DNA of 64,000 bases from a virus, in the IMG/VR virus record IMGVR_UViG_3300040801_004532, positions 1 through 64,000 of that record; one strand, given 5' to 3'. The translations under genes were made by a program, and so were the position numbers. Under the pieces are notes generated by a model. It did not search any database, was not told where the DNA came from, and saw only the letters and a list, made by a program, of their open reading frames with translations. How positions within the stretch are numbered: the first letter of the stretch is position 1; each line of letters starts with the position of its first letter. Shown here one piece after another: positions 52,890-63,455 of the stretch.

Positions 52890-53280
52890 GATACAGGACA
52901 TTTGGTTTGGATAGAAGGGGTTTTCCGGTTTGTAAGGATAGCGCAATCGGATCTTCGGTCTCCTGGTATGGCGGTGCAAAAACGGCGCCGGCACCGGCCC
53001 TACTTCGGATTCTCGAGAAGCGCAATAAGAAATCTCATGAAGCATAGAATATTGTGCTTCGGAGTAAGGACCACAGTTCCTTGGTATTCCGGAAACCAAA
53101 ACTGTAGATGGTATGCTGTGACCTACTCTTCGCCCTCCTGCCGTGTACACAGGCTACATCCCCGGCCTTGCGGATGACTGCCCACGGCCATTCTGGCGGA
53201 CCGTTTTTCACACCGCCGGCGGCGAGATCAAAGGAACAGAATCCATCCCCCTTCTTTCCATTAACTATTCAAACGGAGGT
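52890..53280 (+). other. GC-rich (about 52% GC) non-coding island; candidate structured RNA
   Basis: No plausible ORF. Three cUUCGg motifs. Local stems ggcgg/ccgcc and cctg/cagg. Long-range tttccgg/ccggaaa pairing. Preceded by both recurrent promoter-like motifs. Confidence 0.25.
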
Positions 53281-53841: not shown

Positions 53842-53918
53842 CGGGGCGTGGCGCAGCCTGGTAGCGCGCCTGCTTTGGGAGCAGGAAGCCGGAGGTTCAA
53901 ATCCTCTCGCCCCGACCA
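53842..53918 (+). tRNA. tRNA-Pro (anticodon TGG)
   Basis: Cloverleaf folded by hand: acceptor cggggcg/cgccccg, anticodon loop tttggga, T-loop ttcaaat, CCA encoded. Confidence 0.8.
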
Positions 53919-53957
53919 CCCAATTTTAATTTTAAAAAACATAAAGGTCGAATAGTT

Positions 53958-54203
53958 ATGGTGAGGGTCATCCATAGGAATTGCAACAAACCAGCTTTTT
54001 ATTTTAAAAGCCGATTGGATATTGGGGATATTATATATGCCTCAAATATAATTTTCCTGGATGGATCAACTCCAGAACCGGACACCCCTATGATTTGTGG
54101 TTCATGCAACCAAATGATTTTATCAGGCGAATTAGAACAAGAAGGTTGGACCGACTGGTTTATGGTCGAAGAATTTCACACATTTGAAAACAAGAAAGGA
54201 TGA
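53958..54203 (+). CDS. hypothetical protein
   Basis: 81 aa. Confidence 0.3.
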
Positions 54204-54207
54204 GAAA

Positions 54208-54474
54208 ATGTCGTTGTTTGCAAAGAAGAAAATGACCCATGCTGAAATCGTTGCTCCATTAAAAACCATGGCTGAAACTCTATCAAGCTATATAAAAGAT
54301 CAAGCAGAAACCATTGGGGAATTGAATGTAAAAAAGAGAGAGATCGACAATCAGATTGAATTTTCAAATGAAGAAATTGAAAAATCAAACCATACAGTTG
54401 AGCAGATTAAGAAAATGGTTAACCTTCCCAAAATCAAGAAAATGCCGGCTGATTCGGTTCCTTCGGATGAATAA
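54208..54474 (+). CDS. hypothetical coiled-coil protein
   Basis: aaggatgag RBS. The ORF track starts at 54184. Confidence 0.35.
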   Translation: MSLFAKKKMTHAEIVAPLKTMAETLSSYIKDQAETIGELNVKKREIDNQIEFSNEEIEKSNHTVEQIKKMVNLPKIKKMPADSVPSDE

Positions 54475-54557
54475 CAATATGCCTGCGTGGCGATTAAATT
54501 CTTATATTCGAACCCTAAATTATTTTAGAACAAAAAAATAAAAGGGGTTCGACTATA

Positions 54558-55328
54558 ATGATTTGTGAATATTGTAAAAATAAACACGATGGATCATATG
54601 GATCGGGGAGATTTTGTTCTTCAAAATGTGCCAGGGGGTTTTCTACATCAAAGAAAAGAAAAGACATTAACAAAAAAGTGTCGGAAACTCTTAAAGGATA
54701 TAAAACAATTCCTGGCGGAAAAGTTAAATTATGCGATTATGGTTGTTGTAAAGAAGCAAAATTTCAATTGAAAAACAAAAAATGGTGTTGCTCAGAAAGC
54801 CATAATAAATGCTCAGCTGTTAGAAAGAAAAATTCTAAAGGTTTGACAAAATCGCATAAAAATGGGCGTCCTGCTTTTCCAGAAGGAGCTTATTTAAAGG
54901 GGCATGAGTCATTCAAAAAAAATCTTAAAGAAAAATATAAAAAGTTAAATTTTATTGATAAACCTATAGCAGAAAAACGAAAAATTATATTAAAGGATCA
55001 AAACAATAAATGTGCCATTTGTAATATTGAACAAGAATGGAATGATAAACCTTTAATTTTCCATCTTGATCATATAGATGGCAACAGAAAAAATTGGAGT
55101 AGAGATAATCTAAGATTTATCTGTCCCAACTGTCATAGCCAAACAGAAACATATTGTAGGGGAGGTAATAAGAACATATCAAATAAGCAGCTTAAAAAAT
55201 TACTAATAGAAACAAACTTTAATTTTACAAAAACTTTAGAATTAGCAAACTTATTTCCTGGTGGTTATAACTGGAACCGTGTTAAAAAAATAGCAAGTAA
55301 AATGTGCCAGGGTGATGGAATTTGGTAG
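54558..55328 (+). CDS. HNH homing endonuclease
   Basis: CAICN…HLDHIDGNRKNWSRDNLRFICPNCH. N-terminal zinc finger. The 3' end overlaps tRNA-Leu. Confidence 0.55.
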   Translation: MICEYCKNKHDGSYGSGRFCSSKCARGFSTSKKRKDINKKVSETLKGYKTIPGGKVKLCDYGCCKEAKFQLKNKKWCCSESHNKCSAVRKKNSKGLTKSHKNGRPAFPEGAYLKGHESFKKNLKEKYKKLNFIDKPIAEKRKIILKDQNNKCAICNIEQEWNDKPLIFHLDHIDGNRKNWSRDNLRFICPNCHSQTETYCRGGNKNISNKQLKKLLIETNFNFTKTLELANLFPGGYNWNRVKKIASKMCQGDGIW

Positions 55329-55392
55329 ACATGTATGTTTTAGAAGCATATGCCGTAATGGCGTGGGAGTTCAAGTCTCCCTCCTGGCACCA
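55306..55392 (+). tRNA. tRNA-Leu (anticodon TAG), type II
   Basis: Acceptor gccaggg/tcctggc, anticodon loop tttagaa, long variable arm, T-loop ttcaagt, CCA encoded. Confidence 0.75.
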
Positions 55393-55398
55393 AATCAA

Positions 55399-55872
55399 AT
55401 GAAAGTGAAAACAAAAATGAGCGATCATTTCCTTGAAGCGAGAATTCCATGTTATAAATGCCTTGTTATTTCAGCATGTAAAGAATTTAGTTGTCTTGAT
55501 GAATACCAAAAGGAAGCATTGAAAAATAATTATAGACAAATATGCCTAATGATTCCACAACCTGATTCACAAAATAAAAACTATAAGAAAAGTCTTTTAG
55601 AATGTTGGGCGAATTTAGGACATAGAATTTCTTCAAGTGTACAAAATAGTGAATCAGGCGATGTCAAGGAAGGAGATAGTGTTAAAATAAATCCTTCTTT
55701 ATCTTTTCTTATAAATGATCTATCTGCATTAACACAATGGATTATAAACTCCTCTAGTTGGAGAGAATCAGAATTCTACGAATTTGATCGTTTTGAAATA
55801 TCAAGGCGATTGGAAATTCTATTAAGAATTGTAAATTCAAGCCCGAGTAGCTCAGCTGGCCAGAGCGACTGA
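55399..55872 (+). CDS. hypothetical protein (start uncertain)
   Basis: The ORF track starts at 55312 inside the tRNA. The first Met after the tRNA is at 55399. The 3' end overlaps tRNA-Thr. Confidence 0.3.
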   Translation: MKVKTKMSDHFLEARIPCYKCLVISACKEFSCLDEYQKEALKNNYRQICLMIPQPDSQNKNYKKSLLECWANLGHRISSSVQNSESGDVKEGDSVKINPSLSFLINDLSALTQWIINSSSWRESEFYEFDRFEISRRLEILLRIVNSSPSSSAGQSD

Positions 55873-55917
55873 TTTGTAATCAGTAAGTCGGGGGTTCGAC
55901 TCCCTCCTCGGGCTCCA
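55841..55917 (+). tRNA. tRNA-Thr (anticodon TGT)
   Basis: Acceptor gcccgag/ctcgggc, D-stem gctc/gagc, anticodon loop tttgtaa, CCA encoded. Confidence 0.8.
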
Positions 55918-55938
55918 AAAAAAAGAAAGGATTGAATT

Positions 55939-56106
55939 ATGAATCCAGATGGGTATCATTTGGCATCAACTATATTCCTTCTGGTAAATGGGATTTGGTG
56001 GGGTAAAAATACTCCAATAAATCTTTTAATAAAAACTATATTCTGGAGTCTTGGTATATGGGGGGTAATTATTTGCCTTATTGATTTTGGATTGCTAACT
56101 CCTTAA
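55939..56106 (+). CDS. small membrane protein
   Basis: 55 aa with two hydrophobic helices. Confidence 0.25.
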   Translation: MNPDGYHLASTIFLLVNGIWWGKNTPINLLIKTIFWSLGIWGVIICLIDFGLLTP

Positions 56107-56116
56107 TTTAGATAAA

Positions 56117-56193
56117 GCCCCCGTAGCTCAGCGGAATAGAGCATCTGACTTCTAATCAGAGGGTCGCAGGTTCGAATCCTGCCGGGGGTACCA
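56117..56193 (+). tRNA. tRNA-Arg (anticodon TCT)
   Basis: Acceptor gcccccg/cgggggt, anticodon stem tctga/tcaga with loop cttctaa, T-loop ttcgaat. Confidence 0.8.
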
Positions 56194-56206
56194 CCAAAAC
56201 AAGGAA

Positions 56207-56509
56207 TTGCTAATGCTTGGAATGAGAGAAGAAATTTCAGAAATGATAGAAAATATCACATGTATAATCATAGGGCCACTTATTGTATTTATAGTTTTAG
56301 CAATAACCTCTATTGCTTTTATATTTTATAAAAATCCTTGTAACAAATGTATATTAAAAGTAAGGTGCTCAGAAGTATGTCATCAATCTAAAAAGTGGGA
56401 TTCAGCTCATGACATTTTTAACGACGCTAAAGAAATGCCAATATTGGCGGCAGCGGGTGCCTGTTATATTTTAGCAGTTGGAATAGCATTATATAATCTA
56501 CTCGTATAA
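56207..56509 (+). CDS. small membrane protein with a Cys motif (paralogue of 56761..57063)
   Basis: TM helix followed by PCNKCILKVRCSEVC. Confidence 0.35.
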   Translation: MLMLGMREEISEMIENITCIIIGPLIVFIVLAITSIAFIFYKNPCNKCILKVRCSEVCHQSKKWDSAHDIFNDAKEMPILAAAGACYILAVGIALYNLLV

Positions 56510-56540
56510 TTTGGTTAACCTGAAACAAGGCAGGAATTAA

Positions 56541-56798
56541 ATGGGAATTGAAAATCTTGAAGAGTTCAGAATAATTAAAGAAATTATCAGAAGGGACGGG
56601 GTCGGGATTCCTGATAGAAATGGATGGAAACCAAAAAGAGGTATGATAGTTGAGTTAAAAGACGGAAGACATGAAGTCTTTCGAACTACAGTTAAATCGT
56701 CTCTTGAGGAAACTATTATTCCACTCCTACCGCAAATCGAAAGAATAACATTCATTCTAGATGATGAAGAATATGAATTGGCTATATGTGATTGGTGA
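56541..56798 (+). CDS. hypothetical protein
   Basis: 85 aa. Confidence 0.35.
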   Translation: MGIENLEEFRIIKEIIRRDGVGIPDRNGWKPKRGMIVELKDGRHEVFRTTVKSSLEETIIPLLPQIERITFILDDEEYELAICDW

Positions 56799-57063
56799 AA
56801 ACGCTGCTTATGTTTATACACAAATTATATGGTTGCTTGTACGACTATGGGTATATATAACAGTAAAAGATCCATGTAAAAATTGTTTAATTAAATCATG
56901 CTGTACAGAAAAATGTGAAGAAAAAATTCAAATATTAAATTTCATATATCCTGAAGAAAAAGAAGGCGATGCAAAATTTATCGGGGTGCTTTGTCTATTT
57001 GCATTGGTCGTTCCTTCTTTTCTTTTGATATACTTTACAATTATGATAATTGCAGACCTGTAG
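56761..57063 (+). CDS. small membrane protein with a Cys motif (paralogue)
   Basis: DPCKNCLIKSCCTEKC followed by a C-terminal TM helix. Confidence 0.35.
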   Translation: MMKNMNWLYVIGENAAYVYTQIIWLLVRLWVYITVKDPCKNCLIKSCCTEKCEEKIQILNFIYPEEKEGDAKFIGVLCLFALVVPSFLLIYFTIMIIADL

Positions 57064-57127
57064 CCAAGCGGTAAGGCACGAGGTTTTGGTCCTCGCATCC
57101 CAGGTTCGAATCCTGGCAGGTCTGCCA
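57054..57127 (+). tRNA. tRNA-Gln (anticodon TTG)
   Basis: Acceptor agacctg/caggtct, anticodon stem cgagg/cctcg with loop ttttggt, T-loop ttcgaat, CCA encoded. Confidence 0.7.
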
Positions 57128-57241
57128 ACTCGAAAGGAAAATAAATGAAAGAAATTCAATTTCATCAAGTCAAAATTGATTTCTATTGTGATCGTTGTGA
57201 AGCAAGGGAAAAGGGTGTAAGCGTTCAGGAATGTATTTTCA

Positions 57242-57685
57242 ATGGTCCGCCCATGTGTCAAAAATGTGACGAAGAAATGTCACCGGTCAAAATCTTTCTC
57301 GACAAGTGAAAGGAACGTCATGACCGAAGAGCAAAGGTTTGAGCAGTTAATCGAAGATGAACGTATCAAAAATGTTACAACACTATTAAAAAAGATTGAC
57401 GAAAACGAAGTTCATTTTCAGGATCCAAATATTCAAGCGATTTTAGAAGAACTTTCTTCTTCCGAGAAGAAATTTTACAAATGGGTTTCATTGGCTGATT
57501 CCCTTCCGCGCGGATCCAAACTATTCAAATTATTAGTAAAGGTTCATAAACTCGGTATGATGGGGCATGAGAACTATCAAAAAATCTATGGTGACACGGT
57601 AGATAAGGACACGGAAGTCAGAGATAAATTATACGAAGATACTCCATTTGATAAGTTGGATGTCGATCAGGCATTTTTTGATTAA
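57242..57685 (+). CDS. hypothetical protein
   Basis: 147-aa ORF; the true start may be M at 57320. Confidence 0.35.
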   Translation: MVRPCVKNVTKKCHRSKSFSTSERNVMTEEQRFEQLIEDERIKNVTTLLKKIDENEVHFQDPNIQAILEELSSSEKKFYKWVSLADSLPRGSKLFKLLVKVHKLGMMGHENYQKIYGDTVDKDTEVRDKLYEDTPFDKLDVDQAFFD

Positions 57686-57691
57686 AACAAT

Positions 57692-57781
57692 GCCTGGGTG
57701 GTGGAACCTCGGTAGACACAAGGGACTTAAAATCCCTCGGGAATTATTCCTGTGCGGGTTCGATTCCCGCCCCAGGCACCA
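57692..57781 (+). tRNA. tRNA-Leu (anticodon TAA), type II
   Basis: Acceptor gcctggg/cccaggc, anticodon stem aggga/tccct with loop cttaaaa, long variable arm, T-loop ttcgatt. Confidence 0.75.
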
Positions 57782-58069
57782 ACATTAAGAAAGGAACAGA
57801 ATTTGTATAAGCTGACCTACTGTTTAAATAACCTTGGTGAATATGAAACATTTGCAGAGGCATTCTCTGTACTATATAAAAAATTAAGAGAAGATTCTAA
57901 AGATGGATTTTCATTACAGCTTCTCGAGACAGCAATATGGATCGACCATGATGGATATGGAAGTCCAATCTTCTTTTATGATATAGTAGATAGAGCTAAT
58001 AAACAAAACTTGCTTAAAGATGGCCAACTTGATGAAAAAGTCGTAAAAGAAGCAATAAATAAAGGGTGA
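57752..58069 (+). CDS. hypothetical protein (5' end overlaps the tRNA; true start probably later)
   Basis: 105-aa ORF ending 1 nt before tRNA-Leu(CAA). Confidence 0.3.
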   Translation: MRVRFPPQAPTLRKEQNLYKLTYCLNNLGEYETFAEAFSVLYKKLREDSKDGFSLQLLETAIWIDHDGYGSPIFFYDIVDRANKQNLLKDGQLDEKVVKEAINKG

Positions 58070-58155
58070 GGCCCGATGGTGGAACTGGTAGACACGCTGG
58101 ATTCAAAATCCAGTGCCATAATGGCGTGTGGGTTCAACTCCCTCTCGGGCTACCA
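58070..58155 (+). tRNA. tRNA-Leu (anticodon CAA), type II
   Basis: Acceptor ggcccga/tcgggct, anticodon stem ctgga/tccag with loop ttcaaaa, long variable arm, T-loop ttcaact. Confidence 0.7.
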
Positions 58156-58175
58156 ACTATTTTAGGAGGGAAGTA

Positions 58176-58346
58176 ATGGGTCTTCGAATTAAAAGTGGTC
58201 CTAAATGGGAAGACGATTCTTTAAATGAAATCAGTTTAAGTGCACTTGAAAGAGAGGCCAGAAAGTTTTATGAAAAAACAAGGCCTTGGGAAAAGAATTA
58301 TTGGAAAATAAATCAACGGAAAAAAAGAGATTGGGAAGAAGAATAA
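58176..58346 (+). CDS. hypothetical small protein
   Basis: aggaggg RBS 6 nt upstream. Confidence 0.35.
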   Translation: MGLRIKSGPKWEDDSLNEISLSALEREARKFYEKTRPWEKNYWKINQRKKRDWEEE

Positions 58347-58353
58347 ATTAAAT

Positions 58354-58431
58354 GGACCCATAGCTCAGTTGGCTTAGAGCCGCCGGCTCATAACCGGAAG
58401 GTCGAAGGTTCGAATCCTTCTGGGTCCACCA
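58354..58431 (+). tRNA. tRNA-Met (anticodon CAT; elongator type, possibly Ile-lysidine)
   Basis: Acceptor ggaccca/tgggtcc, anticodon loop ctcataa, T-loop ttcgaat. No C1·A72 mismatch and no GGG/CCC stem, so it does not look like an initiator. Confidence 0.7.
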
Positions 58432-58454
58432 TACTAAATACGAAAGGAATTACT

Positions 58455-59093
58455 GTGATACCAAGTGTCTTTTTCAAAGATTTCGAACAAGCTATAGATT
58501 CAATTATCAAAAAGAAAAACCAACGAAAAGTTACAGAAGAAATTATTGAAAAATTAAAAAGCCACGGATTCCCCCCATCATTGAATAAGGGAATTATAGT
58601 TGATGGACTTTCAAAAATTATTAATGAAGAACTTCCTTTCGATTCTTCTCGAGTTTTAACAGAAATGATTACATTTTCAAAAGCTGTACCCATTAAATTG
58701 ACAAACCATCAGAGATCAAATTTAAAAAAGATTATGGAGTGTATTCTTGAAACTCCAACAGACACAAGTTGCAACCATGACTCATTGGTAATTTCAATAT
58801 CAATTCATGGAGGCGGCTTTACACCAGTAATTAGATTGCCCGAAGTGATCTGTTTATATTGTGGTTTAAATGTCACTCTTTATTCAAAAGAAACAGAAAA
58901 ATATGGTATTGAAATCTCCGATAAAAAAATGAAAGAATTATTCAAATGGGCTATGGAAAACAGAGGTAAATTTGCAGAAGATTTTGTAAAAGATCCGATT
59001 GGATCATATAATAGCTGTGAATCAAAATGGGAGGGAGATATTCCTTTTAGAATAACAAATATGAAAGCATTCGAATCGCGTAGTGGTCAATAA
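58455..59093 (+). CDS. hypothetical protein
   Basis: 212 aa. Confidence 0.4.
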   Translation: MIPSVFFKDFEQAIDSIIKKKNQRKVTEEIIEKLKSHGFPPSLNKGIIVDGLSKIINEELPFDSSRVLTEMITFSKAVPIKLTNHQRSNLKKIMECILETPTDTSCNHDSLVISISIHGGGFTPVIRLPEVICLYCGLNVTLYSKETEKYGIEISDKKMKELFKWAMENRGKFAEDFVKDPIGSYNSCESKWEGDIPFRITNMKAFESRSGQ

Positions 59094-59134
59094 CCAACAA
59101 CTTTCAAGAGTCAAGACTAAGGAGAAAGAACAAA

Positions 59135-59680
59135 ATGGAAATGACAATAACGGAAGGTTTGAAAAGACTGAAACTCCTTGAAAAAAGGATGGCCAGAAAC
59201 TGTGGGGAAATCGAAAGATATTCCTCAATTCTATCAAATGAAAAACCTGCTTTCGATACAGAAGAAAAGCAGAAGCAAGAAGTGAAAAGTCTTATCCAGG
59301 CAAATATGGACCTGGTACAAGAATATGAAAAACTCAAAGCATCAATCGACTATACCAATCTTGTTATCAAGGTTAAGATTGGTGATCAAACCAGGACAAT
59401 CCATGGGTGGTTGACCATTCTGAGAAAGACTGGTCAGTTGCTCATTCAAACCTACAATTCCTTGAGCACGAGGGATGCAACATCAAGACAGCCCCGTTAT
59501 CGGGACCAGAACACAGGACAAAGCCCAACAGTTGTTCGTCTCTATGATGAAAATCAAAAACGGGATGGCCAAAGACTTTGGGAAGACCTTACCAAAGGAA
59601 AAGAGGTTGAAGGTCGTCTTGAAGTTATCAACGCAACAACCCAACTGCTGGATCCGCCCGAACCAGTTGAAAGGAGTTAA
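59135..59680 (+). CDS. hypothetical protein (GC-richer)
   Basis: 181 aa. Confidence 0.4.
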   Translation: MEMTITEGLKRLKLLEKRMARNCGEIERYSSILSNEKPAFDTEEKQKQEVKSLIQANMDLVQEYEKLKASIDYTNLVIKVKIGDQTRTIHGWLTILRKTGQLLIQTYNSLSTRDATSRQPRYRDQNTGQSPTVVRLYDENQKRDGQRLWEDLTKGKEVEGRLEVINATTQLLDPPEPVERS

Positions 59681-59684
59681 CTCT

Positions 59685-60017
59685 ATGAAGAAGTTTGGAG
59701 CATTCCTATTAGTAATTGGTTTCGTTCTGCTCCTTTGTGCTTCTGCAAGTGCTGATGGATTCTATAGGTGTGGCGGATATATGGTCAAGATTGGAGATCT
59801 GAAGTTTCAGGTCCTTCAAAAATGTGGACCGCCAGAAATGAGAGAGTTTGTCGGAAACTCGGCAGAAAGACAAACATATAGAAGGGGCAGAACAAGAAGT
59901 TATAATTACGACATGCCGGTCGAACAATGGATATATGGACCTGACCGTGATCTATGGCATGTTATCACCTTTAAAGGTGGTAAAGTATATAATATCGAAA
60001 GTATCATTCAACGATAA
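59685..60017 (+). CDS. small secreted protein (signal peptide)
   Basis: MKKFGAFLLVIGFVLLLCASASADG. aaggag RBS. Confidence 0.4.
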   Translation: MKKFGAFLLVIGFVLLLCASASADGFYRCGGYMVKIGDLKFQVLQKCGPPEMREFVGNSAERQTYRRGRTRSYNYDMPVEQWIYGPDRDLWHVITFKGGKVYNIESIIQR

Positions 60018-60204
60018 AGTTTGGGTTCGCTGGTCCTCACTGCTGCTTTTGTGCGGTGGGTTGGTATTAAGACCAGAGGGCTACGAGAAGCGGACCCAAT
60101 ACTTCTTTTGGATTCTGTAGTGTAAACAAGTGAAACCGGGGAGCCCTTTCATATTGGGATAAATATGAGACTACAATGGATATAGGTTGATTACCTATAA
60201 AACT

Positions 60205-60310
60205 ATTTCAAGTTTCAAGTATAAATTCTCAAGTCTCACTCGTGACCGCGGCGAGGGTAAATAACCATTTGCGGGTTTCAAGTTTAAAGGGGTAAAGAAT
60301 CAAGTTTAGG
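60205..60310. repeat. Five direct copies of the octamer TCAAGTYT in a non-coding region
   Basis: tttcaagtttcaagt…ctcaagtctc…tttcaagtttaaa…atcaagtttagg. Confidence 0.4.
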
Positions 60311-60408
60311 GCTTGGAATGATTCCATGCGAGAAAAACCCAGGTTTGGTGGTGCATCTCTCCAGCAACATTGCCACTACTGGCTGCTACACGGATCCAAT
60401 CAATTTAA

Positions 60409-60493
60409 TGCGGCGTAGAGAAGCGGTCAATCTCAGAGGGCTCATATCCCTCCGGCGTAAGCCTCACGGGTTCGAATCCCGTCGCCGCTACCA
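60409..60493 (+). tRNA. Unusual type-II (long variable arm) tRNA with a CAT anticodon
   Basis: Acceptor tgcggcg/cgccgct (U1·U72 mismatch), D-stem gaga/tctc, anticodon stem gaggg/ccctc with loop ctcatat, 13-nt variable arm, canonical T-arm acggg-ttcgaat-cccgt, A73, CCA encoded. Confidence 0.4.
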
Positions 60494-60497
60494 AAAT

Positions 60498-60575
60498 GGG
60501 GGCTTGGATTAATGCTTGATCGCCCTGACTCAAGAAGCAGGGAGGAGTAGAGTAGCGACCTACTAGCCCCCACCA
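60498..60575 (+). ncRNA. tRNA-like element (acceptor stem plus ACCA, non-canonical interior)
   Basis: gggggct…agccccc-a-cca. Internal hairpins ccctg/caggg and gtag/ctac. No TΨC-type loop. Confidence 0.2.
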
Positions 60576-60592
60576 TTAAAAAAGGAATAACC

Positions 60593-61168
60593 ATGATAAA
60601 AGAAGATACAACGAATGAAGAACTAGAGAAGGAAAAACAAAAATTAGAAAAAGACCTTGAGTCTTTAAGAAAAAATTATAAAACATTAATGACCAAATTG
60701 ACAAAAACAACTAATCGAATAAGTGAAATCGACAGCGAATTGGATAAAAGAAATTTAAAAGGAAATGATATTGAAAAATTATTAGAAACATTTCCTGAAA
60801 CCGAGACAAAAGAAAAATTGCTGCGCGATCTATTGAGCAAGTTTGATCTTTCAGCAGAAGGATATTTTCCCGATACTGGTCAAAGATGTATCCAAATTTC
60901 CTTGGAAAAGGACAGTAAAGAATCTCTCCAAAAAACATATTATGGTCTTAAATTACTTTTACCATATCTCAAACCAGTAAAAGATGGTAATATCTATGTA
61001 GATATTTTTGAAAGCACTTTATCAAGATTTGGAATCTATACTCTTATTATCAAAAAAGAGAAATTTGAAGTTGAGAAAACAACATGTGGACATCCCGAAA
61101 CAATCTACTCAAATAAAGATTTGAAAAAAGTTTTAGAATATATTCAAAAACATCATTATTACGAATAA
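60593..61168 (+). CDS. hypothetical coiled-coil protein
   Basis: 191 aa. Confidence 0.4.
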   Translation: MIKEDTTNEELEKEKQKLEKDLESLRKNYKTLMTKLTKTTNRISEIDSELDKRNLKGNDIEKLLETFPETETKEKLLRDLLSKFDLSAEGYFPDTGQRCIQISLEKDSKESLQKTYYGLKLLLPYLKPVKDGNIYVDIFESTLSRFGIYTLIIKKEKFEVEKTTCGHPETIYSNKDLKKVLEYIQKHHYYE

Positions 61169-61179
61169 GGAGATAAAAA

Positions 61180-61548
61180 GTGACAAGTTTTAGAGCAATG
61201 AAGGTTTTTGATTTTAAAGATGGGAATTTTTATAGAATCGCGTGTGCATGTGGAAGCTCTGATTGCGATTTAACACTTGAGTTAGAATATGATCCTCAGA
61301 TCAATCATGTTTATTTAAACATGTATAAAACCCTTAGATGGTCTTCATATTATAATGATGGAGATAAATGGTATAAAAATATTTGGTATCGTTTTAAAGC
61401 AGCTTTCAAATGTCTTTTCTTTGGTTATGTAGAAGTTGAAGAATCCTTTATTATAAGTGGTTCAGAACATATGAATGAATATATTAAGGTCCTTCAAGCA
61501 TGCCAAAAACATGTTGATAAAAGAGAAAAAGAAAGTCTGAACAAATGA
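61180..61548 (+). CDS. hypothetical protein
   Basis: 122 aa. Confidence 0.35.
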   Translation: MTSFRAMKVFDFKDGNFYRIACACGSSDCDLTLELEYDPQINHVYLNMYKTLRWSSYYNDGDKWYKNIWYRFKAAFKCLFFGYVEVEESFIISGSEHMNEYIKVLQACQKHVDKREKESLNK

Positions 61549-61883
61549 AAAAGGTTCATATAACAATAATTTACTTCACGCCAGAAAATGATGGGAATGT
61601 AAACTTATTAAAATTTACAAAAACAATTGAAATTGAACTCCCCGTTTTCATGTGTGGAGTATTTATAAAAAATGACGCAATTGAACAACTTGATCTAAAA
61701 GATGGTTATGTTAATTTTGATCCTTATATTAGAGAATACTTTGTTACAAATAGATGCTGTGATGGATTACCTAGGTATGGTTATTACTTTGGTCGTGACG
61801 GATATGATGACCCAAGAATAATTGATATTATCAATAAATTTGAAACTCATGGTTGGAAAACAGAACGATTGAAAAAAGGGTGA
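61545..61883 (+). CDS. hypothetical protein
   Basis: 112 aa. Confidence 0.35.
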   Translation: MKKVHITIIYFTPENDGNVNLLKFTKTIEIELPVFMCGVFIKNDAIEQLDLKDGYVNFDPYIREYFVTNRCCDGLPRYGYYFGRDGYDDPRIIDIINKFETHGWKTERLKKG

Positions 61884-61966
61884 GTTGCCCGAGTCAGGTA
61901 AGGGAGCGGTTTGCTAAACCGTCGAGTGTAAAAGCTCCACAGGTTCGAATCCTGTACTCACCGCCA
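61879..61966 (+). tRNA. tRNA-Ser (anticodon GCT), type II
   Basis: Acceptor ggtgagt/actcacc, G73, anticodon loop ttgctaa, long variable arm, T-loop ttcgaat. Confidence 0.75.
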
Positions 61967-61990
61967 ACAACTTCTAGAAAGGATTAAAAA

Positions 61991-62179
61991 ATGAATGATG
62001 GAAATTTGGCCCTTTTGATGATATTACTTCTGGCTTGGGGAATCTTTGGTTTAGCATGTAGCCTATCATGTGCTGTTTATTCGATTAAAAATTCCTCAAC
62101 AACCTGGTATAAAATTGCAGGATGGGTCGTTATTGCAAATACAGTCATTACTTTTCTAGCTGGAATACTCACACACTGA
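61991..62179 (+). CDS. small membrane protein
   Basis: 62 aa with two TM helices. Confidence 0.3.
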   Translation: MNDGNLALLMILLLAWGIFGLACSLSCAVYSIKNSSTTWYKIAGWVVIANTVITFLAGILTH

Positions 62180-62190
62180 AAGGGGTTGAG

Positions 62191-62391
62191 ATGACCGGTC
62201 GATATGTAGTAACTGGGGTCCAACTTGGTATGCTACAAGTTTTTTTTAAGGAGGGAAAATCTTCTGATGGACTAACTCTTCTTGAAAAAATTCTAGATAA
62301 ACAATTTGTTGGAAATTCATCCCGTGATATTGGGATTGACATAAAACTAATAGAACATTCGAAAACATTTACCAATGAAACTTCTACCTAA
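62191..62391 (+). CDS. hypothetical small protein
   Basis: aagggg RBS. The ORF track starts at 62122. Confidence 0.3.
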   Translation: MTGRYVVTGVQLGMLQVFFKEGKSSDGLTLLEKILDKQFVGNSSRDIGIDIKLIEHSKTFTNETST

Positions 62392-62704
62392 AGATCTTCT
62401 ATATAATCTATTAACTAAATATGGGGAAGACGAACAGCTAAGACAAGCTATGGGTGAATGTGGGGAACTAATAGCTGCTTGTCAAAATTATCATCGAGCA
62501 CAAACATACGGGCATCGAACAGAAACTCTTTCTGTTGTAATAGAGGAAGCAGTTGATGTTTTTTTCATGACTCAACAAATTCGGATTTTAAACCCGGAGT
62601 ATTTTGATGAACTTTGTGATAAAAAGCTTAAAAAAGTTTTGGCAAAATTTAAGAATGAAGTTCCTATTAAGACAAAAACCGATATACATAGTAACAACAA
62701 TTAG
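62375..62704 (+). CDS. MazG-like nucleotide pyrophosphohydrolase (putative)
   Basis: MGECGELIAA…VIEEAVDVFFMT, matching the EE..EL / EE.GDV pattern. Confidence 0.4.
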   Translation: MKLLPKDLLYNLLTKYGEDEQLRQAMGECGELIAACQNYHRAQTYGHRTETLSVVIEEAVDVFFMTQQIRILNPEYFDELCDKKLKKVLAKFKNEVPIKTKTDIHSNNN

Positions 62705-62729
62705 AATATCAAAACCTGAATCTAGGTGC

Positions 62730-62969
62730 ATGAGTTTCTATTATAGTTTAAAGAAAGCAAAAAGAGTAGTTGAATCAAATCAAGGTGACATAAATGAGAA
62801 TGGGCATTATTCATATTGTGTGATTGAAGAAACACTGCCAGGAATGTATTCATATCTCTTAAAAACCAGAAAAGAATGGTGGTTTCGTTTCAACCATGAC
62901 ATAAATAAATATGTGCCATGTGAAAAACCAGAGGAAAAAAGAAACACCATCGCCTTTGGAATGGGATAA
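62730..62969 (+). CDS. hypothetical protein (start uncertain; the ORF track starts at 62604)
   Basis: MSFYYSLKKAKRV…. Confidence 0.25.
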   Translation: MSFYYSLKKAKRVVESNQGDINENGHYSYCVIEETLPGMYSYLLKTRKEWWFRFNHDINKYVPCEKPEEKRNTIAFGMG

Positions 62970-62996
62970 TGAAACAAGATTAAAGAAAGGTATAAA

Positions 62997-63359
62997 ATGA
63001 AATACGAGGAATGTCCTAATTGCGAAAGTTCATATCTTGGAGATATATGGCAGAAAGAAAGAAAGTTACAACAAATCTGTCATGATTGCGGGTGGAAAGG
63101 CGAGGTTAGAACACCGGAGAAAAAACGAATCAACTATACAAAATCGGTTCGGGTGGGCCAATTCTATGGCTACCATTATGAAATTTTTGATAAGTATGGA
63201 CACACGGCAGTAATATCCAGGTATTATGATTCATGGGAGTCTGCGGATGCTGCAATAAAAAAAGAAATTGAAAACGGGAAAACCAACGTCCACGCTGGTC
63301 CCTATACTGGCATCCTATGGCCCCCAACTGTAACGGTAAAAGGAACTCGTTATAAATAA
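62997..63359 (+). CDS. zinc-ribbon protein
   Basis: CPNCESS…CHDCGW. Confidence 0.35.
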   Translation: MKYEECPNCESSYLGDIWQKERKLQQICHDCGWKGEVRTPEKKRINYTKSVRVGQFYGYHYEIFDKYGHTAVISRYYDSWESADAAIKKEIENGKTNVHAGPYTGILWPPTVTVKGTRYK

Positions 63360-63366
63360 GATCTAC

Positions 63367-63455
63367 GGAGGGGTGGTCAAGTATGGCGTGACAGCGGTCT
63401 TGAAAACCGTCGGGTGTAAAAAGCCTTGCAGGTTCGAATCCTGTCCCCTCCGCCA
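63367..63455 (+). tRNA. tRNA-Ser (anticodon TGA), type II
   Basis: Acceptor ggagggg/cccctcc, G73, anticodon loop cttgaaa, long variable arm, T-loop ttcgaat. Confidence 0.75.

Follow-up and report, generated by a model that had tools for sequence, protein, structure and literature searches.

A stretch of viral DNA 64,000 nucleotides (nt) long (positions 1 to 64,000 of IMG/VR record IMGVR_UViG_3300040801_004532; hereafter the window) carries at 60409-60493 a tRNA gene that joins a CAU anticodon to a long variable arm. We consider this gene probably a phage initiator tRNA of the tRNA-fMet type, with an arm inserted at its variable loop. It holds the complete bacterial initiator set, namely an unpaired 1:72, G2-C71, C3-G70, G4-C69, A73, A11:U24, and G29-31:C39-41. 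A long variable arm has so far been the mark of Leu, Ser, Tyr, and Sec tRNAs. Phage-encoded initiator tRNAs are already known from T5 and cyanophages. In the literature searched, with incomplete coverage, neither a natural initiator tRNA bearing a class-II arm nor this class of phage tRNAs turned up, and the long-arm tRNA would be a natural class-II initiator of a sort without prior description found. A second, tRNA-derived element (element 2) lies directly downstream.

Fold and identity elements of the long-arm tRNA

The original prediction described a type-II shape whose anticodon is CAU and whose first acceptor pair, U1·U72, is mismatched, together with a 13-nt arm that has a stem of 3 base pairs (bp), and A73 followed by CCA. 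ARAGORN, Rfam, and the minimum free energy (MFE) fold agree with each of these points (Table 1). The ARAGORN call is tRNA-Met(cat), spans exactly 60409-60493 (85 nt), and has the anticodon at position 35. Rfam family RF00005 matches at 49.1 bits, above its gathering score of 29, treats pair 1:72 as non-standard, and places 11 additional nt in the variable region. Folded without constraints, the gene gives an MFE cloverleaf that includes a hairpin in the variable arm (-32.6 kcal/mol, z -2.46). Both ARAGORN and the MFE fold give a 7-bp acceptor and a 5-bp T stem. None of the tools, relaxed ARAGORN thresholds included, proposed a type-I fold or a different anticodon; a fold of that kind with another anticodon was one of the outcomes that had been set against the prediction.

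The acceptor stem consists of U1·U72 followed by G2-C71, C3-G70, G4-C69, G5-C68, C6-G67, and G7-C66. The 4-bp D stem (GAGA/UCUC) pairs G10-C25, A11-U24, G12-C23, and A13-U22, and its loop, AGCGGUCAA, is Tyr-like. The anticodon stem (GAGGG/CCCUC) pairs G27-C43, A28-U42, G29-C41, G30-C40, and G31-C39, and closes a 7-nt loop, CUCAUAU (60441-60447), with U33.

Methionyl-tRNA formyltransferase recognizes an unpaired 1-72 together with A73, G2-C71, C3-G70, G4-C69, and R11:Y24, and a CAU anticodon suffices for recognition by methionyl-tRNA synthetase (MetRS) (PMC9976931). The 1:72 mismatch leads to formylation, exclusion from the A site, and protection against peptidyl-tRNA hydrolase, three G:C pairs lead to P-site binding, and a foreign tRNA-Tyr became an initiator once given these elements (PMC11231383). 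The window tRNA presents CAU in a 7-nt loop with U33, an unpaired U1·U72, all four minor determinants of the formyltransferase (G2-C71, C3-G70, G4-C69, A73), a purine11:pyrimidine24 pair in the D stem (A11:U24), and three consecutive G-C pairs at 29-31:39-41. It departs from the initiator signature in its 13-nt arm, in U38 for A38, and in U·U for C·A, and in nothing else.

E. coli tRNA-fMet (metZWV/metY) shares with the window tRNA the unpaired 1:72, G2-C71, C3-G70, G4-C69, A73, CAU, a D stem GAGN/NCUC with A11:U24, and G29-31:C39-41. It differs in having C1·A72, the loop CUCAUAA, a 5-nt variable loop, and the D-loop AGCCUGGUA where the window tRNA has AGCGGUCAA. Bacterial class-II tRNAs for Tyr, Leu, and Ser resemble the window tRNA in the long arm with a short hairpin, the Tyr-like D-loop, and A73 (Tyr and Leu). 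The window tRNA is unlike them in its CAU anticodon, its 4-bp D stem with A11:U24, its 1:72 mismatch, and its initiator-type acceptor and anticodon stems. Of the features of a class-II elongator it thus has the long variable stem-loop, but neither a Leu, Ser, or Tyr anticodon nor the fully paired acceptor for EF-Tu. Allo-tRNAs and nematode nev-tRNAs likewise combine a long arm with the anticodon of another amino acid family, but they keep Ser/Leu (or Ala) identity and a role in elongation, whereas the window tRNA has determinants for Met, formylation, and initiation. The acceptor/T geometry of allo-tRNAs is 8/4 or 9/3 (PMC7609411), and the 7/5 of the window tRNA is not of this allo-tRNA or tRNA-Sec-like kind.

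A CAU anticodon could also belong to a tRNA of the Ile2 type, in which C34 becomes lysidine and the tRNA reads AUA for an AT-rich phage; the other tRNAs of the window cluster mostly serve A/U-ending codons (ARAGORN). We regard this as highly unlikely. E. coli TilS reportedly uses the pairs C4:G69/C5:G68. The window acceptor, UGCGGCG, has G4:C69/G5:C68 at these positions and lacks the GGNCC of tRNA-Ile2, and the mismatch and three G-C pairs of an initiator are both present. An Ile2-like CAU tRNA, type I with G1-C72, is already present in the same cluster (Table 1), and it groups with the curated Ile2(CAU) genes of T4, T5, and 44RR and not with the T5 elongator Met. That second CAU tRNA is therefore no rival initiator, and the long-arm gene is the sole Met-type tRNA seen in the window.

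Long-arm CAU tRNAs in phages and cells

The pattern used to scan IMG/VR joined an initiator-type anticodon arm (GGGCTCATANCCC) to a following T-arm across more nucleotides than a type-I loop could supply. The architecture of the window tRNA occurs in at least 119 viral contigs. The class figures given here (115 parsed tRNAs, 75 unique, 38 aligned, and 82 or 95 loci) are among the matches listed. The pattern fixes the anticodon arm, gap length, and T-loop only, and the acceptor and D stems are therefore independent tests. GGG:CCC is imposed by the pattern and so is informative for the window gene only, not for the class.

Position 1:72 is neither G-C nor C-G in 111 of the 115 tRNAs. Its states are U·U (27), U-A (21), C·U (16), A·A (14), A-U (13), C·A (7), and others. 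The neighboring determinants are frequent: G2:C71 and C3:G70 in 103 each, G4:C69 in 94, and A73 in 95. A strong 1:72 pair is found in none of the 75 unique members with G2:C71 and C3:G70, where U·U is commonest (21). In the alignment of 38 sequences, 91.3% of cells are paired, against 70.5% after shuffling and 41-52% with slid partners, and the covariation score is 0.569 versus 0.156, a value matched by 0 of 500 shuffles. Within this alignment 1:72 is unpaired in 26 of 38 sequences while pairs 2-7 are paired at 95-100%. A pair that fails in an otherwise perfect stem indicates selection for a non-pair there, as an initiator requires. Pair 11:24 is AU in 28 of the 38 and UA in 6.

The arms of the class are 11 to 22 nt long. 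They form at least 3 bp in 63% of cases, compared with 31% of shuffles, and GNRA sequences make up 27 of the 56 hairpin loops. The tRNA genes are densely arrayed at these loci, at a median of 9 per locus. A type-I initiator-like gene accompanies the long-arm gene in just 2 of 82 loci and an ordinary type-I CAU tRNA in about 30, and the long-arm gene appears to occupy the initiator slot in phage arrays.

Covariation across the class makes a pseudo-tRNA, one of the options first considered, unlikely. That the window gene is a non-functional relic, its U·U and long arm being signs of decay, is very improbable to us even though its Rfam score is the second lowest in the cluster (49.1 bits) and such genes are unannotated in several GenBank records. 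Its stems are all intact, covariation over 38 diverse homologs is strong, the arms form hairpins better than shuffled sequences do, with an excess of GNRA loops, and the gene is present in the at least 119 phage contigs, usually as sole occupant of the initiator slot.

A smaller set of long-arm CAU tRNAs, class B, was found at L032, L045, L061, L073, L074, and L081 (IMG/VR) and at L146, L153, and L171 (Elusimicrobia metagenome-assembled genome, MAG). Class B has a similar body with a paired 1:72, C11:G24, a Tyr/Leu-like D arm (CCAGAGUGGACAAUCGG), and the loop CUCAUAU, and at times adjoins an initiator-like gene. By sequence these tRNAs look like elongator tRNA-Met on a class-II body. The window tRNA differs from them exactly at the initiator determinants 1:72, 2:71, and 11:24.

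Class B bears on the possibility that the window tRNA is itself an elongator with a class-II body, either a Leu-, Tyr-, or Ser-type tRNA retargeted to AUG, which would cause mistranslation, or a long-arm elongator tRNA-Met, brought by EF-Tu to AUG codons inside genes. Fully paired class B members exist in phages, one of them (L074) with 83% body identity; the D-loop AGCGGUCAA, the 13-nt arm, and A73 are like those of bacterial tRNA-Tyr/Leu bodies; and tRNAs with a variable arm and a non-cognate anticodon are known (allo-tRNAs, nev-tRNAs). We nevertheless judge an elongator improbable. The difference from class B falls on the three initiator positions, 1:72 is unpaired here and G-C in 0 of the 75 class members with the rest of the stem 95-100% paired, and such a mismatch excludes a tRNA from the A site (PMC11231383). 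The anticodon contains no Tyr, Ser, or Leu letters and is one that MetRS reads, the tRNA lacks the G73 that Ser tRNAs have as discriminator, and its arm stem is limited to 3 bp. The proposal of a Leu-like tRNA retargeted to AUG or AUA, also made at the outset, is for these reasons not the best reading: the tRNA has the full initiator set and no Leu, Ser, or Tyr anticodon, and in cultured T5-like phages the long arm is an insertion in an initiator lineage.

The same pattern was sought in cells. Only 50 loci were found among 185,579 genomes (one genome per species), nearly all on MAG contigs. The genuine cases sit in phage-like arrays of 7-18 tRNAs per 8 kb, and the remainder are archaeal intron-containing initiators or duplications. 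The long-arm initiator architecture appears in this survey to be phage-specific and almost absent from cellular genomes, which upholds the earlier remark that a long arm and CAU occur together in no standard bacterial tRNA. L176, from the MAG set, is the closest relative of the window tRNA. An exact search of IMG/VR with a 28-mer of the tRNA gave no matches. When the tRNA was compared with cultured phages by blastn, no match reached E<1e-3 and those at E<10 were all partial. One MAG contig, CAWBCD010000019.1 (L175:5088-6281), contains the pattern six times at a regular spacing of 192 nt, which suggests a tandem array; ARAGORN reports only one CAU tRNA at this locus.

Cultured phages do carry members of the class. 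Megablast of the class matched Salmonella phage Arash (96%) and Pectobacterium phage DU_PP_V (88%), where nothing is annotated at the site yet ARAGORN calls the gene. The Arash gene has C1·U72, G2C3, A11:U24, GGG:CCC, a GGC-GAAA-GCC arm, and A73-CCA. Used as a query, it found 21 cultured-phage records, mostly T5-like Demerecviridae. Long-arm genes of 82-86 nt occur in Arash, DU_PP_V, and Providencia phages PR1 and PSTCR5, unannotated or under 'hypothetical protein'. Short-arm relatives of 75-77 nt occur in Pectobacterium phage My1, in Proteus phages (annotated tRNA-Met), and in E. coli phage Av-05. The aligned series has common acceptor, D, and T arms, with 1:72 mismatched or weak in all, and the long arm is an insertion of about 10 nt precisely at the variable loop.

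As PMC4810235 cites Chen et al. 1975, T5 codes for a formylmethionine-specific tRNA. The T5 gene T5t14 (NC_005859 32428-32505), curated as 'initiator tRNA fMet', reads UGCGGGU...ACCCGCU-U-CCA and has U1·U72, G2-C71, C3-G70, and G4-C69. The seeming defect at U·U is the state of this curated initiator tRNA-fMet. T5t14 is collinear with the short-arm genes (Proteus phage, My1, Av-05) and with the long-arm genes (PR1, Arash, DU_PP_V, and the window). In addition to these acceptor pairs, T5 tRNA-fMet shares with the window gene a place in a phage tRNA cluster, CAU in a CUCAUAA-type loop, and an encoded CCA. It is unlike the window gene in its short variable loop (type I), in U73, and in lacking G29-31:C39-41 (its stem is CUAGU/GCUAG), where the window gene has a 13-nt arm, A73, and three G-C pairs; the window phage is distantly T4-like rather than T5-like, and the host differs. 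The long arm of the cultured T5-like phages is inserted in a tRNA of initiator descent and is not part of a Leu-like body that acquired another anticodon. A type-I initiator-like tRNA is also present in the T4-like Aeromonas phage 44RR2.8t, with U1-A72, G2C3, A11:U24, GGG:CCC, and the loop CUCAUAU as in the window.

Several observations weigh against an initiator. To our knowledge, the variable loop is short in every characterized initiator, whether cellular or from a phage such as T5, and in place of the class-I body with its 4-5-nt loop the window gene has a 13-nt hairpin arm. Position 38 is U instead of the usual A, as in 44RR. Class B exists, and a long arm is therefore not exclusive to initiator-like genes. 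The T5 initiator lacks the three G-C pairs and has U73, so the E. coli rules are not uniform in phages. The closest relatives of the window tRNA (86% body identity) are uncultured, and its similarity to the T5-like series is only moderate. Finally, no consistently neighboring protein family points to a role for the arm; the most frequent one, without a Pfam match, occurs at 13 of 95 loci.

Some further features of these loci were seen. A protein with an RF-1 domain lies near the long-arm gene in 4 loci; it is a GGQ protein of ~118-135 amino acids, similar to release factors and peptidyl-tRNA hydrolase, in L019 and three other class-A loci. In Arash, an annotated peptidyl-tRNA hydrolase is 2 kb from the long-arm initiator gene. 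Initiator-like genes lack GenBank annotation at L190:3001-3084 (Arash, OQ632216), L191:3001-3086 (DU_PP_V), L205:300-382 (PR1), and L208:300-375 (Av-05). The Arash annotation also omits tRNA-Gly and tRNA-His, the Av-05 gene is missed even by ARAGORN, and in PR1 and PSTCR5 the gene lies under or adjoins a 'hypothetical protein'. Several otherwise normal phage tRNAs (Table 1) have the non-canonical T-loops AUCGUGA, AGCGUAA, and AUCGUAC, compared with UUCGAAU. These may be another recurrent phage-specific tRNA variation.

Predicted use of the long-arm tRNA

From its determinants we infer how the tRNA would be charged, formylated, processed, and used in initiation, and what its arm may do. Under E. 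coli-type rules, host MetRS would charge the tRNA via CAU and A73. Host methionyl-tRNA formyltransferase would then formylate it, guided by the unpaired 1:72 with G2-C71, C3-G70, G4-C69, A73, and A11:U24. U1·U72 would keep the tRNA off EF-Tu and out of the A site and protect it from peptidyl-tRNA hydrolase, and the three G-C pairs of the anticodon stem would direct it to the 30S P site. The phage would thus have its own supply of initiator tRNA. The extra arm is a selected, lineage-variable insertion at the variable loop. Our favored guess is that it lets the phage initiator be told apart from that of the host, or renders it resistant to something that targets the host initiator.

Phage tRNAs have been described as an escape from host tRNA nucleases; VapC-LT2 targets tRNA-fMet, and in the Shigella case phages 'generally avoided encoding' tRNA-fMet (PMC10264068). 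A structurally distinct initiator would fit this framework of nuclease escape. A bolder and tentative idea, more doubtful than the initiator assignment, is that long-arm tRNAs form a private phage initiation channel. The arm might evade a toxin of the host or of a rival element, for instance a nuclease of the VapC type directed at tRNA-fMet, or an acetyltransferase. It might instead evade the host shutoff by the phage itself, or it might be a handle for a phage factor. If so, phage mRNAs would keep initiating while host initiation is blocked, and the tRNA would be the first natural class-II initiator as well as a ready-made orthogonal initiator scaffold.

If the tRNA initiates as predicted, a class-II body is acceptable to the formyltransferase, to IF2, and to the P site. 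Phages would then repeatedly have selected an initiator distinct from that of the host, which bears on how phage tRNAs survive tRNA-targeting defenses, and a natural scaffold would be available for orthogonal initiator engineering. Cultured phages of Salmonella, Pectobacterium, and Providencia carry the gene, mostly missed by annotation pipelines, and so the question is directly testable.

Element 2 and the tRNA cluster

The original prediction also noted a perfect acceptor stem followed by ACCA just downstream of the tRNA. This stem is present (GGGGGCU/AGCCCCC, 7 bp, then A-CCA), although a 7-bp stem with NCCA is by itself within chance, with about 10 further instances in the coding sequence of the window. 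Element 2 is taken as real because it is conserved in the related phage contig L120 (95-167; covariance model 77 bits), in front of the same gene and with a neighboring protein 89% identical. The homology between L120 and the window starts at 60496, 2 nt 5' of element 2, and for the 92 nt upstream in L120 the window has no counterpart. Element 2 can therefore be separated from the CAU tRNA as a module of its own, and it travels with the downstream open reading frame (ORF).

Element 2 has a D-like hairpin (GAUU/GAUC) without G18G19, an anticodon-like stem (CCCUG/CAGGG), and a T-like stem (AGUAG/CUACU). The corresponding loops in the window are AAUGCUU, ACUCAAGAAG, and AGUAGCGAC. The D-like loop measures 7 or 4 nt. 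The anticodon-like loop has 8-10 nt in the window and 7-9 nt in the L120 copy. The T-like loop, AGUAGCGAC, has 9 nt and is not TΨC-like. Overall identity is 84%, the 3' 47 nt of the two copies are identical, and the differences are confined to loops and linkers. All 21 stem pairs are intact in both copies; the 42 stem nt contain 1 compatible change (U·G to C-G), against a background divergence of 16% (P ~0.006). The MFE fold of the L120 copy is a four-arm cloverleaf. For the window copy the MFE fold is rod-like; it was rejected in favor of the cloverleaf because its pairing segment UGCUU is deleted in L120.

Element 2 thus has the 7-bp acceptor, the discriminator with CCA, and the four-arm cloverleaf of a canonical tRNA, but no match to the tRNA model, no G18G19, no TΨC loop, and no 7-nt anticodon loop. 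No RF00005 hit was found at E<=1, and ARAGORN in bacterial mode made no call even at 60% thresholds. The organellar mode (-mt) calls both copies at the coordinates given here, with the 'anticodons' CAAG (four bases) in the window and CAG in L120. A working tRNA without an elbow, whose expanded anticodon loop decodes the quadruplet CUUG or else CUG, might be read from these calls; the L120 call is a tRNA-Leu(CAG) with U33 and a purine at 37, A73-CCA is intact, and natural and engineered quadruplet decoders have 8-nt loops (PMC11231383). This is extremely unlikely, because the anticodon differs between close relatives where a decoder would conserve it. The missing G18G19 and TΨC loop, a D-loop reduced to 4 nt, and the absence of Rfam and bacterial-mode ARAGORN calls also argue against decoding.

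Beyond L120, the covariance model of element 2 matches only ordinary tRNAs: tRNA-Val(UAC) at 30-35 bits, scores biased by retrieval of these genes via an acceptor stem identical to that of element 2, and tRNA-Pro(UGG) at 26-29 bits. These matches point to a tRNA-derived RNA in which stems but not loops have been maintained, in line with the earlier wording 'degenerate tRNA or tRNA-like'. Is element 2 simply a decaying copy of tRNA-Val or tRNA-Pro with no function of its own? We think this unlikely, though it deserves weight. Decay should strike stems too, and in the two copies 21 of 21 stem pairs are kept, with the one compatible change noted above, all differences in loops, and a 3' part 100% identical; homology from 2 nt upstream also suggests that the element moves as a unit with the downstream gene. 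What speaks for a pseudogene is the acceptor identical to that of phage tRNA-Val(UAC), anticodon and T stems that resemble Val/Pro genes, non-canonical D, anticodon, and T loops, the change of CAAG to CAG between copies, and the restriction to two contigs.

T5 and T4 (rnaC and rnaD) encode what have been called 'tRNA-like stable RNAs with unknown functions'. T5 RNA1-3 and T4 rnaC/rnaD resemble element 2 in lying within the tRNA cluster on the same strand as a tRNA gene, 1-6 nt from it, and in having a tRNA-like terminal helix. T5 RNA3, of 73 nt, follows tRNA-Asn at a distance of 2 nt; its acceptor is paired and ends in A-CCA, and its internal hairpins are non-canonical. T4 rnaD lies 1 nt after tRNA-Arg. 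Element 2 is unlike them in sequence, as its model picks up nothing but ordinary tRNAs at the T5 and T4 loci. It keeps four cloverleaf stems, whereas a D stem is missing from T5 RNA3. At 119-144 nt, rnaC, RNA1, and RNA2 exceed it in length, and they retain a canonical T-loop. The resemblance appears to be functional and positional only.

With low confidence, and by this analogy, element 2 may be a non-decoding stable RNA or a processing or stability element for the downstream gene. It is a separate module that has kept all four stems and ACCA and has lost the elbow motifs (D-loop/T-loop) and a fixed anticodon. Most likely it would be cut out of the cluster transcript, or structure it, linked to the downstream gene and like the T5 and T4 RNAs. 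The tRNA-like stable RNAs from the tRNA clusters of T4 and T5 have long lacked an explanation, and element 2 would be a further case. Set against a maintained role, two copies are known, with no homolog in IMG/VR, a metagenome scan, or cultured phages. A conserved 17-mer gave chance hits only in metagenome and viral contigs, blastn against cultured phages gave none, and the covariance model found no copy besides L120 in ~1.2 Mb of phage tRNA-cluster loci. Searches for tmRNA, Rfam families, and homology to T4/T5 stable RNAs found none. The 191-amino-acid protein encoded downstream has no relatives in IMG/VR, weak tblastn matches in T4-like Klebsiella phages, and three related proteins in a large database. 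Among these three, L120 carries element 2 and L121 does not.

Table 1. Coordinates of the features discussed, in the window unless a locus is named
Feature	Position	Strand	Basis
Putative initiator-type tRNA(CAU) with long variable arm, 85 nt	60409..60493	+	ARAGORN, Rfam, MFE cloverleaf, class covariation
Acceptor stem (UGCGGCG 5' strand)	60409-60415/60483-60489	+	Sequence
D arm	60418-60434	+	Sequence
Anticodon arm	60436-60452	+	Sequence
Anticodon CAU	60443..60445	+	Sequence, ARAGORN
Variable arm CGGCGUAAGCCUC, 13 nt, 3-bp GGC/GCC stem, GUAA (GNRA) tetraloop	60453..60465	+	MFE fold
A73; CCA	60490; 60491-60493	+	Sequence
Spacer AAAU, 4 nt, between tRNA CCA and element 2	60494..60497	+	Sequence
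Element 2, putative tRNA-derived cloverleaf RNA, 78 nt	60498..60575	+	Conserved in L120
Conserved spacer with Shine-Dalgarno-like AAGGA, 5' of downstream ORF ATG	60576..60592	+	Sequence, L120
Downstream ORF, 191 amino acids, phrog_7208, unassigned function	60593..61168	+	Accompanies element 2 in L120
tRNA cluster, 11 tRNA genes, all with encoded CCA	53842..63455	+	ARAGORN, sequence
Second CAU tRNA, type I, G1-C72	58354..58431	+	Groups with curated Ile2(CAU) of T4, T5, 44RR
tRNA-Pro with non-canonical T-loop	L026:4136-4211		
tRNA-Phe with non-canonical T-loop	L061:3464-3537		
tRNA-Met of Arash with non-canonical T-loop	L190:2821-2895		

The window belongs to a source contig of ~248 kb from a large, distantly T4-like phage that encodes a Gp23-type capsid, a Gp20-type portal, a family B polymerase-UDG fusion, and a DnaB-like helicase. 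Megablast of window positions 59-62 kb against cultured phages gave no match and hence no close cultured relative. The 11 cluster tRNAs are interspersed with small ORFs and an HNH endonuclease. This HNH homing-endonuclease ORF (54558-55328, +) terminates within the 5' part of tRNA-Leu(UAG) (55306-55392, +), and homing-endonuclease-like ORFs are the commonest neighbors in related phage tRNA arrays.

At the head of the cluster is a GC-rich island (52900-53250, +; 43-62% GC against ~30% in the flanks) that contains only overlapping, spurious-looking ORFs. It matches no Rfam family apart from a weak hairpin like domain 5 of group II introns (53010-53066, 22 bits). Its fold (-132.8 kcal/mol, z -3.16, 0 of 100 shuffles) has a long closing helix and three UUCG loops, and we consider the island a candidate structured RNA of ~350 nt, not assigned to a family.

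Promoter and terminator scans around the tRNA locus gave nothing above shuffles. Upstream of the initiator tRNA, a 370-nt non-coding stretch contains the motif TCAAGTYT four times inside 100 nt (60208-60307, +). The whole window has just 10 copies, a local cluster with no overall enrichment, and the repeats could be regulatory or promoter-associated.

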